A DNA stretch of 64,000 nt, taken from IMG/VR virus record IMGVR_UViG_3300025128_000015, positions 96,001-160,000 of that record; one strand, written 5' to 3'. The stretch is from a virus. Below the pieces are notes generated by a model, which was given only the letters and a program-made list of their open reading frames with translations, had not been told where the DNA came from and made no database searches. Of this stretch, positions 11,829-44,306 are shown piece after piece. Each line of letters opens with the position of its first letter. Positions within the stretch are counted from its first letter, which is position 1. The position numbers and the translations under genes were made by a program.

Positions 11829-13271
11829 ATGAAAATCACAAAGTTGCAAATCAAAAAAATAATCCAGGAAGAAATTGAGAATGTTTTAGAAGAACGCAGT
11901 GAGTTCTACGACGGAACCTCCTGGCACTCGTCTCCTGGCACAGCAAAAGAGAAAAGAGATGCTTATATACATAGAATGAAAGCTAAGAGAGCTAAGATTA
12001 CGCCAGGCAGTCCTGCATACAATCCGGCCGCGCCGGTCAGCGATCCTGGATTCAAAAAGAGAGATGAGTACGTACGCAGTATGAAAGCTAAGAGAAGCTT
12101 CCCATTCCGGAAAGCGGATTTTTTGAGTCAGGTAAGGCAACAATCACTCCCCGTCGACGCAGCCTGGACCCCGACTCCGGACCATACACGGCGAGCGCGT
12201 TATGACTGGGATAATGAGAGCGGTGTGACAATGTACGAGCGCCCGTTTCCCGGAGAGTTCCCGACAAAACAGTATAGTGGGACACTTGATGAAGGCGAAT
12301 TAGATGAAAAACGTGCCGGCGGTGATGGCGGCTTCATCGTGATGGATCTTGACGACCCGGATTATGATTTTTTGGCAGACAAAAGCAACATATATCGCGG
12401 CCGGAGCGAGAAGGATAATATCAGGAAATTTCCTGGTATTATCGACGGCGGTGGGGCTCTAGGTATTGTACGGGATCCGGATTCTAAATCAGGATATACC
12501 GTTCTTGTCGACGTCGAGGCTATGCGGGACGGTAAGGGAATTACAAAGCCATATCTCATGGATAACTACAAAGAAGTTTTTAGAGACAAGTCCCATCCAA
12601 AGCATGAATTAGTTAAACAGCAATTAGCCGCTAGAAGAGGCTATAATGCATTAATGAAACAACCGCGGGTGAAACGTTTCATTAAGCAAAAAGGCGATCC
12701 ATATGGACAAGCTAATAGAAAGGCTGCAGATCCTAGTACTAAACCAAAATTACCAAAAAATTGGAAAAGTTTAAGTCCGTCGGATCCGCGAAGGGTTGCG
12801 TATAGAGATTGGAAAAAAGGAAAGACGCCAGCACCAACCGGCGATGCGGCTAGAGCGAAACGCAAAGAATTTCTAGCAACAGCAACGCCAGGGCAATTAG
12901 GCAAAGATAATGAGGCGCGTTTGGCGCTTGGCTTACCTTTGCCGGCAGAAACTCAAAGCAAAATAGCAGCTATCGGAAAAGATGTTGATAGACTCTCAAA
13001 ATCAACCGCGCAATCTAATCTTGGAGGGTTAGAAGGGAACTTTGCTGTTGAGCAGCCGGCTCGCGTTGCAACTAGCAAAAAAAGCATAGCTAAAAAAACA
13101 GCCAAAGCAAAACCGCCTAAAAGGCTTGGTACGGTACCAAGTACACCTGGAATGCTTACAAAAGGCATGCAATATAAGCTAAGAGAAGAAAAATCACGTA
13201 TTAGGAAGTTAATTGAAGAAGTATACGATGAAGTCTTGGCCGAAGAAGGTTGGTTTGAGCCACATATTTGA
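11829..13271 (+). CDS. Tagged basic modular protein (putative virion-internal); start revised to 11829
   Basis: MKITKLQIKKIIQEE tag; SD GAGGA; internal KRDxYxxxMKAKR repeat. Confidence 0.75.
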   Translation: MKITKLQIKKIIQEEIENVLEERSEFYDGTSWHSSPGTAKEKRDAYIHRMKAKRAKITPGSPAYNPAAPVSDPGFKKRDEYVRSMKAKRSFPFRKADFLSQVRQQSLPVDAAWTPTPDHTRRARYDWDNESGVTMYERPFPGEFPTKQYSGTLDEGELDEKRAGGDGGFIVMDLDDPDYDFLADKSNIYRGRSEKDNIRKFPGIIDGGGALGIVRDPDSKSGYTVLVDVEAMRDGKGITKPYLMDNYKEVFRDKSHPKHELVKQQLAARRGYNALMKQPRVKRFIKQKGDPYGQANRKAADPSTKPKLPKNWKSLSPSDPRRVAYRDWKKGKTPAPTGDAARAKRKEFLATATPGQLGKDNEARLALGLPLPAETQSKIAAIGKDVDRLSKSTAQSNLGGLEGNFAVEQPARVATSKKSIAKKTAKAKPPKRLGTVPSTPGMLTKGMQYKLREEKSRIRKLIEEVYDEVLAEEGWFEPHI

Positions 13272-13459
13272 CCTGATGAGCTTGACTGGCCCGGTGGGTC
13301 AAAGATTATTTCGCAACTTAAACGCAAGAAGAAAGCGAATAAACGAAAAGCTAAGAGGTAAACGTGAGGGTAGAAAAAATCTCGGGAAAAAAATCGCGGA
13401 TTTTTGGCGGGGTTCTCTTGTCTAAGCAACTAATTATTCTATGAAAAGGACGAAACCGC

Positions 13460-42300: not shown

Positions 42301-44306
42301 TAGGATCTCTAATTAAAGTTCTTGGTCGAAAAACAAAACAAGATGCTCTCGCCGCCACCAACAGGATAGGTGATCTGGTTAACGCGGTGGTCGACGAACC
42401 GCTTGAAAAAGCGATAACAGATAAAGAAAAAATTAACCCAGCCCACGACACCGGTAAAGCTGCAGCACAATTTGCTCAAAAAGCAATGACTAAGAAAGCA
42501 GCTAGTGATCGTCGTAAGAAATATAAGCATGCTCTTCCAAAAATATTTAAAGAAGAATCACTATCTGAAAAATTAACAAAGTACTTGGATGAGAATCTTA
42601 AATTGAAAAAAAGAACACCAAGTCGACCGATCGGCTCGCCAAATCTTAAAGATATTGATAGAGCATCCAATCTTGAACGATTTGATAAACACAATATGAA
42701 AAATTATGATGAAGAAGGATATTATATTGGACGCCCACTCACAGCCAAAGGCGCCCAGCCCTCATTCGGTGACAATATTGAAGATTTACCTTCAAAATTT
42801 ACCCAAAATTTTAGCAGACTTTTGAGAAGTAAAAGTCCCAAAAGAAGAGATAAAATTACAAACTATCTGCCAGATTTTGAAATTGGTACTGGAGACATAT
42901 CCTTAGCGCCTAATTTAAAGTTTTATGCTACGGCACGCACCAATTGGGATGAAAGAAGACCAGAAGGACGTTTGAGCAAAAATATGAAATTCGTGGATGA
43001 CCCCGGAGATACAAATAAAATTTATGATGATGAAGGATATCATATTGGTTATGAGGATGATGTCAAATCCCAACCACTCGTACCTAGAGCACAACCAAAG
43101 ATAAGCGGACGTCCATACGGACATTACGCCGGCGTTGGGTTAAAAGGAACGTTTGAAGAAAACAACAATCCAGAAGAATCACTATCTGAAAAATTAACAA
43201 AGTACTTGGATGAAAATGACAAACCAGATTATCAAGCAGCTATAAAGAAAGCGAAAGAACATGAAAAATTAATTAACCCACAAAAAGTTAAAAGAGAAAA
43301 GAAAAAGAAAACTCAGACTAAAAAGGCTAGAGAAACTTATAAACGTTTGAGAAAGTATTTGGAAGAACAATCGCCAACACAAAAAAAAACTAAAGATGCA
43401 ACTGGAAAGATATCTAAATCATATGATTCTGGACCAGACGCTTATCGTTGGAAAGAATTATTCAAACGCAAAGGTTTAGATCCATCAAAAGGATCTGAGG
43501 TTTCTAAAAAAATTGGAAGTCAATTAAAAGGAGTGAAAGCTGTAGAAGCTCCAGCAACAAAAGGAGTTGATTCCGGTGTTGCCCGAGCATTCTACGATCC
43601 GAAAAAACCTAAACAGATACAATATTTTAAAGGAGCGGATCCAAAAAAATCAACTGTTCGACATGAATTAGGACATGTAGTTTCGAAGTTGGCTTCTAAA
43701 GAGAAACCAGTATCTGATTTAGTTAGAGGAGATAAATCTGCTAAGAAACTGCGAACACAAGAACCAAAAAGATATTCCCGCGGCACTCCATCAGAACGGA
43801 TAGGTACGTTAGAACCAGATGCAATGTTACCTTCTCAATTGTACGGTGGAGAAGGAGGAGAATACGAAAAGATTTTTCGATTCCAACACAGACCTGATGT
43901 TAAAATTGGTCGTAGACTCGACCGCGGCCTCGGTAAAGTTGGTTCTAGGACCCAAGCTAGAAAAGGTTATGTAGCAGACGAATTATATGCGCCAATCAAA
44001 AACACACAATGGTCAATTCAAGATGCGGCCAAAAACAATCCGAAAAAAGGATATATGGATGGAAATCGAATCACTCCAGCTGCTGTGAGTGCTATATGTA
44101 GCGGAGAAATCAAAGTTTCTTCTAAAGTTCGAAATAATGTTCGAGGATGTAACGAAAGAGATCCTGAAAAAAGAAAGCAAATTTTTCAAGGTGTATCCGA
44201 TGCTCTCAATAGAGTCGCGAAAGGACCACAAAAACGCCAACAAAGAAAAATGGTTGCAGAATCACTATCTGAAAAATTAACAAGGTTTTTGGATGAAAAT
44301 AACTAA
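39369..44306 (+). CDS. 1645-aa modular protein, putative self-tagged polyprotein
   Basis: N-terminal class B tag, five ESLxxKLxxYLxE-type linkers, RHELGH zincin motif in the last module. Confidence 0.8.
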   Translation: MTMKHLLESWRSYERKVLTEEKEPLDEISYNYAEEVENWLADNGDQVALPFNDLFDDKLRKVIPLGKAIAPNSEIASLINWFKRNGYELDFKTGLASKEVEDRQGNKRLKQMKPGKLLAQAQKYLTKYDKLYGEMNDIVVGLGYKVDYREHEPWQKKRAERMDHLERAERVFPAISRDVTQTVQNHIQFWNKKSQFYRENPEKAFIEYSIILSRAPIDVLRMSDHKNIRSCHSEGSDYFKCARAEAQGHGPIAYAVETRDLEDIDLDDDEVFEDRERGIGGIEPVSRVRLRRFTSRETTLDLAVPEQRTYGTSIPGFVKKVTDWARESQKPVWEDFIDENSGKIDPEFHGMFFRTGGSYTDTSSSSLFNKMFEDYGASFHGSAPHRGSEEEFEDGGDEYEQDYERFHEELRDINVAIDDAEYNVSRFRDVGPTGESGFQFSAEIDNDEWQEMGDEVSAYWNGSMTFTFIEGEESLPSHHKEQQDIADEIQKLIASEVHLGIMETQIDDVGNTIEVRVEFETYNDGVYSIAEQIRSFVEDMESTSEEYNDMKAMIYTHLAKSGYVNPTAAATLTNKLAAGELEFKHFELTHDNEGHYITLKVDDEDEATGVDFPKRVDTYRAPKTTVGPIRNRLLELMREGYGGARGLSATSSNRYGLVQSKQFTRQVLDLLTPEIAAIVKANADQQKLDLQENSSITPQAIEAHLLQGFVLKLREIQRREPMKGHGRRKDEVPGKTPIYVDVEEMHYSLDDEDEFEIVEPIIAFFVHLDKNIDKLFKAITDVLQTLDVQYGNKTVEGQSQINDIVQMADDVAEFVKEKTGGGVIYGDSRDVSSPKTYREKLLQGLKRANYVLAKLTSPGDQSYISMFTGIETQYPLRMNDSERFIKIITMLQRDHAEMNIYWKKLTPEDLDKSLEQEEEPHKPADDRDDGWQPGMPVTESLANKLRSYLGEQKKIKLKDVPRVKHIPKASYGLPVKGIGSLIKVLGRKTKQDALAATNRIGDLVNAVVDEPLEKAITDKEKINPAHDTGKAAAQFAQKAMTKKAASDRRKKYKHALPKIFKEESLSEKLTKYLDENLKLKKRTPSRPIGSPNLKDIDRASNLERFDKHNMKNYDEEGYYIGRPLTAKGAQPSFGDNIEDLPSKFTQNFSRLLRSKSPKRRDKITNYLPDFEIGTGDISLAPNLKFYATARTNWDERRPEGRLSKNMKFVDDPGDTNKIYDDEGYHIGYEDDVKSQPLVPRAQPKISGRPYGHYAGVGLKGTFEENNNPEESLSEKLTKYLDENDKPDYQAAIKKAKEHEKLINPQKVKREKKKKTQTKKARETYKRLRKYLEEQSPTQKKTKDATGKISKSYDSGPDAYRWKELFKRKGLDPSKGSEVSKKIGSQLKGVKAVEAPATKGVDSGVARAFYDPKKPKQIQYFKGADPKKSTVRHELGHVVSKLASKEKPVSDLVRGDKSAKKLRTQEPKRYSRGTPSERIGTLEPDAMLPSQLYGGEGGEYEKIFRFQHRPDVKIGRRLDRGLGKVGSRTQARKGYVADELYAPIKNTQWSIQDAAKNNPKKGYMDGNRITPAAVSAICSGEIKVSSKVRNNVRGCNERDPEKRKQIFQGVSDALNRVAKGPQKRQQRKMVAESLSEKLTRFLDENN
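42551..44283 (+). repeat. Direct repeats encoding the ESLSEKLTKYLDE linker
   Basis: 42 nt identical at 42551-42592 and 43172-43213; 26-nt identical core at 44258-44283. Confidence 0.95.

Follow-up and report, generated by a model that had tools for sequence, protein, structure and literature searches.

Proteins that have nothing else in common may still begin with the same few residues, and the question is what such a shared start is for. It is raised by a 64,000-nucleotide stretch (the window) of the 190-kb genome of an uncultured, marine, T4-type phage. Two short conserved N-terminal peptides, class A and class B, head hundreds of otherwise unrelated proteins in this phage and its wild relatives. 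An earlier note on the window had described them as address tags on about 18 proteins, a putative means of loading cargo into the capsid and of releasing it by proteolysis.

Detection of the tags and their membership

An unbiased all-against-all comparison of N-termini, covering this genome and that of a relative, G001, returned only three recurrent motifs: class A, class B and a MKVGDLV mini-gene family. For scoring, profiles were built solely from tags on contigs other than this one (IMG/VR loci), with reversed sequences as decoys. Such profiles had been proposed in the earlier note, and those of both classes scored above the decoys, the best of which reached 6.6 bits (class A) and 7.2 bits (class B). 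The genome yielded nine class A copies at 11.5 to 41 bits. Class B comprised three canonical copies, at 30 to 37 bits, two divergent forms and one shortened form (Table 1). The class A copy at genome position 15927, outside the window, scored 14.4 bits.

The N-terminal sequences at all coordinates listed in the earlier note matched its description, and the robust count in the window came to some 12 tagged proteins, with about 4 more as marginal cases, rather than about 18. The internal copy at 14069 was confirmed and looks like the start of a formerly separate tagged gene that was later fused, and gene 16565 is tagged at both ends, as had been described. The partial core at 14522 immediately precedes a basic DUF6321 module (residues 395-473 of the product of gene 13460-14887). 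The starts at 17532, 19223 and 19878 resemble class A by eye but stay below the profile threshold. The membership of 34393 in class B is doubtful, and 33079, formerly assigned to class A, was excluded as a member of a separate conserved family.

Among the class B starts, those of 22101 and 39369 fall under the strict profile but have tagged homologues in G001, the first a NUDIX gene with a class B variant and the second encoding a 1226-aa protein with a recognisable tag and canonical end. Because the NUDIX domain covers residues 27-133, the tag of 22101 lies outside the fold. Gene 27172 has the class B end on a 10-residue short form only (W4, F7, I8, E10), equal in length and spacing to the T4 capsid targeting sequence (CTS); in a relative, a member of its family, phrog_36119, bears the class B tag at full length. 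In the 1645-aa protein, every linker copy ends in L-x-x-[FY]-L-x-E and lies between K/R-rich modules, and the linker spacing gave 11 proteome matches versus 1.4 +/- 1.2 in shuffles.

Table 1. Tags, linkers and promoter-like motifs in the window (window coordinates).
Feature	Position	Strand	Gene and remarks
Class A tag, 22 aa	5715..5780	+	starts 69-aa gene 5715-5924; 41.1 bits
Class A tag	11829..11894	+	starts 480-aa gene 11829-13271; 25.1 bits
Class A-like helix	about 13194-13268		end of gene 11829-13271
Class A tag	13460..13525	+	starts 475-aa multi-module gene 13460-14887; 18.1 bits
Class A tag, full, internal, with Met	14069..14134	+	in gene 13460-14887; 33.9 bits
Class A core, partial, internal	14522..14566	+	in gene 13460-14887; 11.5 bits
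Class A tag	14889..14954	+	starts 84-aa gene 14889-15143; 26.0 bits
Class A tag	16565..16630	+	starts 209-aa gene 16565-17194; 19.4 bits
Class A copy, C-terminal	17120..17173	+	end of gene 16565-17194; 22.2 bits
Class A-like start, weak, marginal	17532..17606	+	55-aa gene 17532-17699; by eye, under threshold
Class A-like start, divergent, marginal	19223..19288	+	214-aa gene 19223-19867; 6.8 bits, seed profile only
Class A-like start, divergent, marginal	19878..19943	+	580-aa gene 19878-21620; by eye only
Class B tag, 14 aa	15147..15188	+	starts 121-aa gene 15147-15512; 37.0 bits
Class B tag	15512..15553	+	starts 333-aa gene 15512-16513; 30.7 bits
Class A-like core, internal	16088-16123		in gene 15512-16513
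Class B tag, divergent	22101..22142	+	NUDIX hydrolase gene 22101-22544; under strict profile
Class B short form, 10 aa	27172..27201	+	328-aa nucleotidyltransferase-like gene 27172-28158
Class B tag	37468..37509	+	starts 152-aa gene 37468-37926; 30.2 bits
Class B tag, divergent	39375..39416	+	two codons into 1645-aa gene 39369-44306; seed profile match
13-residue linker, five copies	42183..44297	+	C-terminal 700 aa of 1645-aa protein
Linker copies	42183-42221, 42555-42593, 43176-43214, 43344-43367, 44259-44297	+	
Promoter-like motif	5685..5693	+	30 nt upstream of tagged gene 5715
Promoter-like motif	11796..11804	+	upstream of tagged gene 11829
Promoter-like motif	13430..13438	+	upstream of tightly packed tagged genes 13460, 14889, 15147, 15512
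Promoter-like motif	16537..16545	+	upstream of tagged gene 16565
Promoter-like motif	17501..17509	+	upstream of gene 17532
Promoter-like motif	34362..34370	+	upstream of gene 34393 (tag membership doubtful)

Spread and conservation of the tags

Scans of IMG/VR recovered at least 220 class A tags on at least 180 unrelated cargo groups (198 proteins, 180 groups) and at least 173 class B tags on at least 88 such groups (150 complete proteins, 88 groups). The tag stood at the very start of the ORF in more than 95% of profile matches, GTG and TTG starts counted. Distinct DNA versions made up 155 of the 173 class B and 218 of the 220 class A tags, with synonymous codons used freely; conservation is in residues, not in codons or DNA, and selection works on the peptide.

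The tags are phage-restricted: among the matches listed, more than 120 tag loci lay in viral contigs, whereas 596 Gb of prokaryote genomes gave matches in 6 small MAG contigs. No such tags were found in cultured phages, and almost none in prokaryote genomes. Flavobacterium phage immuto, Mel-JY01 and RM378, the nearest cultured relatives, all have the prohead protease, and none showed a tag when checked, so the tags are dispensable for head assembly. Each genome of the clade carries 10 to 20 tagged genes, against 3 or 4 in T4 (G001 has about 19 tags), and cargo families in the clade number hundreds. The tagged genes stand in tandem arrays within variable regions, and relatives differ by their gain and loss.

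Tag anatomy and the T4 capsid targeting sequence

Both classes carry a hydrophobic-x-x-hydrophobic-[I/L]-x-E pattern at residues 8-14, which reads L8-x-x-I11-I12-x-E14 in class A and W8-x-x-[FY]11-[LI]12-x-E14 in class B. Both tags close with [I/L]-x-E (residues 12-14), in line with the (L/I/V)xE noted earlier ahead of cargo modules; in class B, no position past E14 is conserved. E6, N7, W8 and E14 are invariant in class B, and position 5 is hydrophobic in all copies, though left free in the scan. Class A is conserved at the scan-free positions 7 (Q/R/K), 9 (K/R) and 13 (K/R), and its helix-like heptad pattern extends to residue 22, past the proposed first cut.

The capsid targeting sequence of T4 internal proteins was reportedly described by Mullaney and Black in 1996. 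T4 IPII and IPIII, whose sequences we checked, begin Y4-x-x-F7-I8-x-E10. In T4 the CTS occurs on IPI, IPII, IPIII and Alt and is removed by the prohead protease gp21 (PMC9026906, PMC3012670); targeting depends on residues 4 and 7, processing on residues 8 and 10 (PMC9026906). Alt bears a propeptide at each end (PMC9026906), like the products of genes 16565 and 11829 with their class A helices. In both systems a short N-terminal peptide heads otherwise unrelated proteins, the head module is T4-type and includes a gp21-family protease, and the cargo genes vary and lie in plastic parts of the genome; the tag ends also share the spacing aromatic/hydrophobic-x-x-hydrophobic-[I/L]-x-Glu, a likeness of spacing only, over 7 residues. 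The CTS has 10 residues, class B tags have 14 and class A tags about 22, and the two classes are distinct although they occur within one phage; class A genes, unlike CTS genes, sit inside the head module.

Class A genes and the head module

The phage encodes a gp23 capsid protein and a gp21-family prohead protease (Peptidase_S77, genome 31684-32337), in line with the gp21 parallel of the earlier note. Peptidase_S77 was present in 5 of 5 long relatives, and 40+ relatives share a conserved scaffold at the gp22 position. The propeptide of the capsid protein has a conserved end, L-L-R-E↓A, across 79 relatives (residues 56-59), about as far from the N-terminus as the cut in T4 gp23, whose 65-residue propeptide is removed after residue 65 (PMC5694885; motif, PMC9026906). 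From these sequences, the L/I-x-E logic of the protease appears to be retained in the clade.

Class A loci, chosen by tag alone, contained the large terminase in 55 of 135 cases, the portal in 50 and the protease in 22, where loci of 9 kb in a genome of 190 kb would be expected to do so in about 6% of cases. The protease gene frequently has one to four class A genes as direct neighbours, and the conserved small protein that follows the protease begins in a class A-like manner. Class A genes take the slots of the T4 core genes 67, 68 and 22 beside the protease gene, but their number and content vary, unlike those of the fixed T4 core genes. T4 gp67, gp68 and gp22 are small, acidic, helix-rich prohead core proteins cut at L/I-x-E; no sequence similarity was found between them and class A proteins. 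Most class B arrays are located away from the head module.

The motif CTA[AT]TTA[CT]T occurred 12-65 nt upstream of scaffold, sheath, neck-region and tagged genes in three genomes and was strand-specific in each (16:1, 12:1 and 11:0). It is promoter-like and common to tagged operons and scaffold/sheath genes, which suggests co-expression.

Cargo of the two classes

Class A proteins (median length 104 aa) are small and without known relatives, and their genes are scattered over the head-gene module; they may be core or internal proteins that the phage can do without. Recognisable class B cargo (median protein length 201 aa) includes kinases, NUDIX hydrolase, nucleotidases, deoxyribonucleotidase, polynucleotide kinases, ParB-like nucleases and nucleotidyltransferases, an enzyme set that would suit host-takeover or counter-defence roles. 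To our knowledge, NUDIX, deoxyribonucleotidase and polynucleotide kinase are cytoplasmic in T4 and are not packed. TM-like segments occurred in 0.5% and 4% of tagged proteins versus 9.8% of the proteome, and the cargo is predicted to be soluble.

The basic DNA-binding modules previously proposed as cargo are not the rule, as the pI is below 6 for 61% of the cargo in class A and 79% in class B; the small T4 internal proteins are basic, whereas the cargo here is mostly acidic and often enzyme-like. HExxH domains had also been named as cargo, but the HExxH protein (28182-29459) has no tag. In 25 of 120 loci its gene lies beside class B genes.

Proposed head loading and its alternatives

Both peptides may be capsid-targeting propeptides of the T4 kind that load proteins into the head, a reading that we prefer and of which we are about half persuaded. 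We infer docking, cutting, packaging and injection as follows. Tagged proteins would be produced alongside structural proteins, and the N-terminal helix would dock the cargo on the prohead core by its hydrophobic face (residues 3/4, 8, 11 and 12), the partner being the scaffold or small core proteins. Once the shell is closed, the gp21-type protease would cleave after the conserved Glu 14, in class A probably with a second cleavage at the second [L/I/M]-x-E (residues 20-22), and the freed cargo would remain in the head and enter the host together with the DNA. Extra cutting sites, by which fused genes would yield polyproteins, would be supplied by the internal and C-terminal copies and by the five linkers of the 1645-aa protein. 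Several observations count against head loading: class A is conserved beyond its first putative cut, [I/L]-x-E is a common tripeptide, the likeness to the CTS is limited to spacing over 7 residues, and the nearest cultured relatives have the protease and lack the tags. The acidity of most cargo, unlike the basic T4 internal proteins, and the location of class B arrays outside the head module, with enzymes that T4 leaves unpacked, would also seem to speak against it.

Docking on some other shared partner in the infected cell, such as a phage hub protein, a chaperone or a degradation-timing protease, is rather unlikely but would account for class B arrays of accessory enzymes distant from head genes. 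The phage encodes a GroEL-like protein (genome 84052-85632) and, at genome 90821-91456, a ClpP-like peptidase (phrog_94 and related families), a homologue of which occurs in G001, and class B fits the loose N-terminal signal of ClpX, which Flynn et al. 2003 reportedly gave as 'Met-basic-three hydrophobic-x5-hydrophobic'. A degron, however, leaves unexplained the invariant E6, N7, W8 and E14, the fixed [I/L]-x-E end in both classes, the clustering of class A genes round the prohead protease, the promoter motif that tagged genes share with scaffold and sheath genes, and the internal linkers separating modules. It seems improbable that the tags act as generic amphipathic helices that attach small phage proteins to membranes or to one another (coiled-coil bundling), with no part in packaging and no cutting: strict N-terminal placement and an abrupt stop at Glu would be unexpected, and polar positions are invariant over hundreds of copies, where membrane-binding helices tolerate many substitutions. 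The helical hydrophobic moment is in keeping with such helices in class B (0.55; 4% of shuffles as high) and in the linker of the 1645-aa protein (0.52; 0.3% of shuffles as high), as is the heptad-like pattern of class A, whose amphipathic moment is, however, unremarkable.

We consider it very improbable that the tags are leader peptides for a modifying enzyme, by a RiPP-like logic. A radical-SAM gene (window 55882-57528) and the recurrent untagged HExxH neighbour would provide candidate enzymes, but G001 has its tags without a radical-SAM gene, no single enzyme gene occurs at more than about one-fifth of tag loci, and the cargo consists of full-size folded enzymes rather than peptides. Least credible is that the common starts are functionless DNA recombination cassettes or paralogue remnants, comparable to the mini-gene array junctions in this genome: the tandem, variable arrangement of tagged genes would agree with it, but almost all copies differ in DNA while the peptide is kept, residues rather than codons are conserved, and the cargo is unrelated.

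The proposed head loading also has parallels outside T4. Encapsulin cargo-loading peptides are short, occur at either protein end and bring unrelated enzymes into a shell of phage-capsid fold; they have no sequence relation to the class A and B tags, usually sit at the C-terminus, attach to the shell itself and, unlike what is proposed here, are left uncut. The giant phages phiKZ, 201phi2-1 and SPN3US have ejection or inner-body proteins with processed propeptides, in which a gp21-related protease cleaves after the Glu of a three-residue motif, as proposed here, possibly at several sites; their paralogues can have identical N-termini, and large enzymes are packed (PMC5694885). Their propeptides, by contrast, are mostly longer than 100 residues, with the motif A/S-x-E in a different lineage, and no single short tag is common to hundreds of cargo families (PMC5694885). 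Because the tags share the key-residue spacing of the T4 tag, the present clade probably pre-packs a large and varied protein cargo.

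Anatomy and conservation of the tags

The earlier note had described two families of short N-terminal peptides, classes A and B, on about 18 proteins. This observation was confirmed as a whole, the listed N-termini all reading as described there, and it proved to reach far beyond the window. The class B tag comprises 14 residues, M-K-L-L-hydrophobic-E-N-W-[RK]-x-[FY]-[LI]-x-E, with no conservation from position 15 on; its position 5 is always hydrophobic, although it was left free in the scan. The class A tag reads M-K-[IL]-T-K-x-[QRK]-L-[KR]-x-I-I-[KR]-E-E-[LI], and beyond this core a weaker helix-like pattern runs up to a second [L/I/M]-x-E at positions 20-22, after which comes an acidic, Gly/Pro-rich stretch. 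Both classes have hydrophobic residues at positions 3/4, 8, 11, and 12 and Glu at position 14, and both contain the gp21 motif L/I-x-E as [LI]12-x-E14.

Among the matches listed, 155 of 173 class B tags and 218 of 220 class A tags were distinct DNA versions, with synonymous codons used freely. That nearly all copies differ in DNA in this manner argues that selection acts on the tag peptide. In 2.35 Mb of related DNA, with GTG and TTG counted as starts, more than 95% of profile matches lay directly at the beginning of an ORF; genuine copies inside a protein or at its C-terminus are rare.

Tagged proteins of the window

To avoid circularity, profiles were built from the tags of other contigs and then used to score the genome under study. 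The best reversed-sequence decoy reached 6.6 bits for class A, and the decoy maximum was 7.2 bits for class B. When all N-termini of this genome and of G001, a complete 185-kb relative, were compared without bias, the only recurrent starts were class A, class B, and that of the M-K-V-G-D-L-V mini-genes, which are a true small-protein family and not a tag.

Features of the phage genome (window positions unless marked "genome")
Feature	Position	Observation
Class A tags	5715, 14069, 14889, 11829, 17120, 16565, 13460, genome 15927, 14522	Nine profile matches, 41.1-11.5 bits
Class B tags	15147, 15512, 37468	Three profile matches, 30-37 bits
Divergent class B tags	22101 (NUDIX), 39375	G001 homologues with recognisable class B tags
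Short class B form, 10 residues	27172	Family phrog_36119; a member in a relative has the full tag
Weak tag variants	17532, 19223, 19878	
Doubtful tag	34393	
CTA[AT]TTA[CT]T, window	5685, 11796, 13430, 16537, 17501, 30237, 34362, 46560	
CTA[AT]TTA[CT]T, rest of genome	genome 15379, 24934, 35021, 38268, 38869, 39329, 42062	
M-K-V-G-D-L-V mini-genes	4665-6128, 9268-9727, 17196-17462 (-), 21617-21859 (-), 39157-39348	Start shared by many tiny genes
DUF6321 module	14650-14887	C-terminus of gene 13460
"DWFG...GGWVDC" module	16300-16513	In gene 15512
HExxH protein	28182-29459	425 aa, untagged
Predicted lipoprotein	23848-25767	639 aa; repeated MopE-type metal-binding motifs (PF11617, E=8e-17); weak VWA match
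Protein with internal class B-like core	genome 161284-163563 (window 65284, just outside)	759 aa; W-K-Q-F-L-N-E at residue 651
Phage sigma factor	9925-10884	
Prohead protease, gp21 family	genome 31684-32337	Peptidase_S77, PF03420, 116.7 bits
Major capsid protein, gp23 type	genome 36389-38188	PF07068, 202.8 bits
S21-like protein	genome 32757-32999 (L334:18758-19000)	80 aa, basic; phage ribosomal protein S21, phrog_21469, E=2e-7
ClpP-family peptidase	genome 90821-91456 (L336:11822-12457)	phrog_94 "head maturation protease", E=7e-41

Two proposed members of the tagged set dropped out: the product of 33079 belongs to a separate conserved family, and the HExxH protein carries no tag. The latter begins with a minimal HExxH (H-E-L-V-H, residue 89) metallopeptidase-like domain, followed by an acidic linker and a long K/R-rich tail, and may be a DNA-bound protease; its homologues adjoin class B genes in 25 of 120 loci among the matches listed. 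In the 759-aa protein encoded just outside the window, a C-terminal module of about 100 aa follows the internal class B-like core, which may be a further cutting site.

The tag carriers are largely one clade of uncultured T4-type phages

The window covers bases 96001-160000 of a single virus record of 189,594 bases. This genome encodes a prohead protease of the gp21 family, present in five of five relatives, and a major capsid protein of the gp23 type. Even the closest cultured counterparts of this capsid protein, from Flavobacterium phage immuto, Microcystis phage Mel-JY01, and Rhodothermus phage RM378, share only about 48% identity with it, and the same family occurs on approximately 600 uncultured IMG/VR contigs (59-67% identity for the best 80 of them). 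Taken together, these features place the phage on a marine branch, distant and uncultured, of the T4-type phages; to judge by the nearest cultured relative, the hosts of this branch are probably marine Bacteroidota. Two genes past the protease, the head module holds the gene of the S21-like protein. The ClpP-family peptidase, also found in G001, is encoded far from this module and comes in addition to the gp21-type protease.

Degenerate DNA patterns for the two tags each matched at least 120 loci of IMG/VR, with at least 173 class B and at least 220 class A tags. Among the matches listed, 150 complete class B proteins fell into 88 unrelated cargo groups and 198 complete class A proteins into 180. 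Further genes in common with this genome were present at 100 of 120 class B and 117 of 135 class A loci among the matches listed; the tag carriers are therefore largely one clade. In G001, tandem arrays carry about 10 class A and about 10 class B tags; G002, another relative, has few. A related-loci search confirmed no relatives of the 580-aa protein encoded at 19878-21620.

Profile searches found no tags in phages immuto, Mel-JY01, and RM378. Nor was any tag matched when 50,697 cultured phage records were compared by tblastn with whole tagged proteins and with a class B tag of 20 residues; the sole cargo match was the DUF6321 module. This blank is meaningful for near-identical tags because the same method recovers the capsid-targeting sequence (CTS) of T4 (E=1e-5). 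Residues 1-40 of the product of gene 37468 gave one weak match in a database of 5.8 billion, the 14-residue tag being too short for E-values. The class B pattern matched prokaryote genomes only six times in 596 Gb (L358-L363). The six contigs, 1.5-16 kb long, belong to MAGs of unrelated phyla, several carry the matches as tandem pairs, and they look like phage DNA mis-binned into MAGs.

Cargo of the tagged proteins

Class A cargo has a median length of 104 aa and is almost without database relatives. The median for class B is 201 aa, and its recognisable members are accessory enzymes: NUDIX proteins, HAD-type nucleotidases, polynucleotide kinases, Zeta-toxin/AAA_33-type kinases, Ser/Thr kinases, ParB-like domains, a nucleotidyltransferase, and a GNAT acetyltransferase. 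In the tagged set we found no capsid, tail, lysis, or core replication protein, and membrane-like segments were scarce in it. Basic DNA-binding cargo had been proposed; some basic modules do occur in the window, but the tagged proteins are in general mostly acidic, with a median pI of 5.2 (class A) and 5.0 (class B) and a pI above 8.5 in only 26% and 12%, respectively.

Pfam and PHROGs gave no match for most tagged proteins of the window, and for the N-terminal 944 aa of the 1645-aa protein (gene 39369-44306), PDB gave no sequence match and the Atlas no informative neighbour. The DUF6321 module that closes gene 13460 shares 85% identity with the C-terminus of a Prochlorococcus cyanophage P-TIM68 protein and is also present in pelagiphage podoviruses, and the "DWFG...GGWVDC" module corresponds to the N-terminus of the same P-TIM68 protein. 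The comparison points to a shuffling of cargo modules among marine phages, across phage families. Free swapping of one cargo between the two classes was not supported, as only two partial cross-class cargo similarities were found.

Class A genes often lie among head genes, and several tagged genes follow a promoter-like motif

Class A loci, chosen by the tag alone, held the large terminase gene in 55, the portal gene in 50, and the protease gene in 22 of 135 cases among the matches listed, where chance would give about 6%. The corresponding numbers for class B were 10, 9, and 4 of 120 among the matches listed. One to four class A genes often directly flank the protease gene, before or after it, where T4 has its core genes 67, 68, and 22. 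A start resembling class A is also seen in the conserved small protein whose gene follows that of the protease.

The motif CTA[AT]TTA[CT]T is strand specific: forward and reverse copies number 16 and 1 in this genome, 12 and 1 in G001, and 11 and 0 in G002. The scaffold, sheath, and neighbouring structural genes are preceded by it at a distance of 12-65 nt, and its copies before the scaffold and sheath genes are kept in both relatives. It also precedes tagged genes 5715, 11829, 13460, 16565, and 17532, of which 13460 heads a run (13460, 14889, 15147, and 15512) behind one motif, as well as gene 30273 (934 aa), the PhoH-like gene 46589, and, in G002, one class B gene. The motif is probably the late promoter of the clade, with late timing presumed, and the phage sigma factor may be what reads it. 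For the canonical late promoter of T4, TATAAATA, the coding strand showed no enrichment, with 8 forward and 14 reverse matches.

Proposed capsid loading and rival explanations

In T4, the first 10 residues of the CTS suffice for head loading, residues 4 and 7 serving mainly for targeting and residues 8 and 10 for processing, and gp21 cuts after L/I-x-E (PMC9026906). In the T4 record, IPII and IPIII begin M-K-T-Y-Q-E-F-I-A-E. The same spacing is given by W8, F/Y11, L/I12, and E14 in class B and by L8, I11, I12, and E14 in class A, with four extra residues ahead, and gene 27172 has the 10-residue form itself; this likeness is one of the spacing of four functional residues only, seven residues being too few for a statistical test or for proof of common descent. 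In the proteome the seven-residue spacing is found 11 times, where shuffles gave 1.4 +/- 1.2, and nine of the 11 are in tagged window proteins. Five copies stand in the C-terminal 700 residues of the 1645-aa protein, where they link K/R-rich modules.

As in the T4 internal head proteins, a short conserved peptide stands at the extreme N-terminus of otherwise unrelated proteins, and the genome, like that of T4, has genes for a prohead protease of the gp21 family and for scaffold and capsid proteins of the T4 type. In 79 relatives the propeptide of the capsid protein ends in a conserved L-L-R-E|A, at about the distance from the N-terminus at which T4 gp23 is cut, after residue 65 (PMC5694885), which suggests that the protease of the clade kept the L-x-E preference. 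Unlike the T4 internal proteins, the cargo of the clade is not small and basic. A full-text literature search for the tag motifs returned nothing relevant. Relative to the literature, the proposed loading system would expand the T4 CTS principle to two classes of tag, in a lineage from which it had not been described before.

Capsid loading, with putative packaging and cutting, is the best-supported explanation, with six independent kinds of indirect evidence in its favour, and we give it about an even chance. The invariant polar residues of the tags are at odds with a generic helix for membrane binding or bundling. These residues, together with the genomic context, would also be left unexplained if the tags were N-terminal recognition signals for ClpX, a loose hydrophobic pattern that works with a protease/unfoldase partner; class B does fit this loose pattern and the phage has a ClpP-like peptidase and GroEL. 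A docking or degradation tag for another partner is conceivable, above all for class B. Leader peptides of the radical-SAM/RiPP type would need a dedicated modifying enzyme and are unlikely because G001, with its approximately 19 tags, has no PF04055 match. DNA-level recombination cassettes (PeSL-like junctions) were excluded, nucleotide conservation being absent and codons diverse.

An extended form of the capsid-loading explanation is rather doubtful in our view: classes A and B would dock on different partners in the prohead core and jointly load hundreds of interchangeable families, which the protease would release for injection as a ready-made arsenal for both counter-defence and takeover. 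Its cargo families would include kinases, nucleotide-signal hydrolases, nucleases, and nucleotidyltransferases, and the tag would be the unit that turns any newly acquired gene into an injected effector. When the scaffold encoded at the gp22 position was co-folded with the N-terminal 34 residues of class B proteins, the score was 0.00, a value obtained without controls that speaks neither for nor against binding.

If the tags load heads, the capsid-targeting principle of T4, known from three or four proteins of a single phage group, would become a general, much expanded strategy, belonging to abundant uncultured marine phages. Hundreds of candidate injected proteins would be named from sequence alone, mostly of unknown function and prime candidates for early counter-defence factors, and two new short tags with defined ends would be at hand for packing foreign proteins into T4-type capsids. 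The tags also make testable how a phage recruits new genes into its set of injected proteins.
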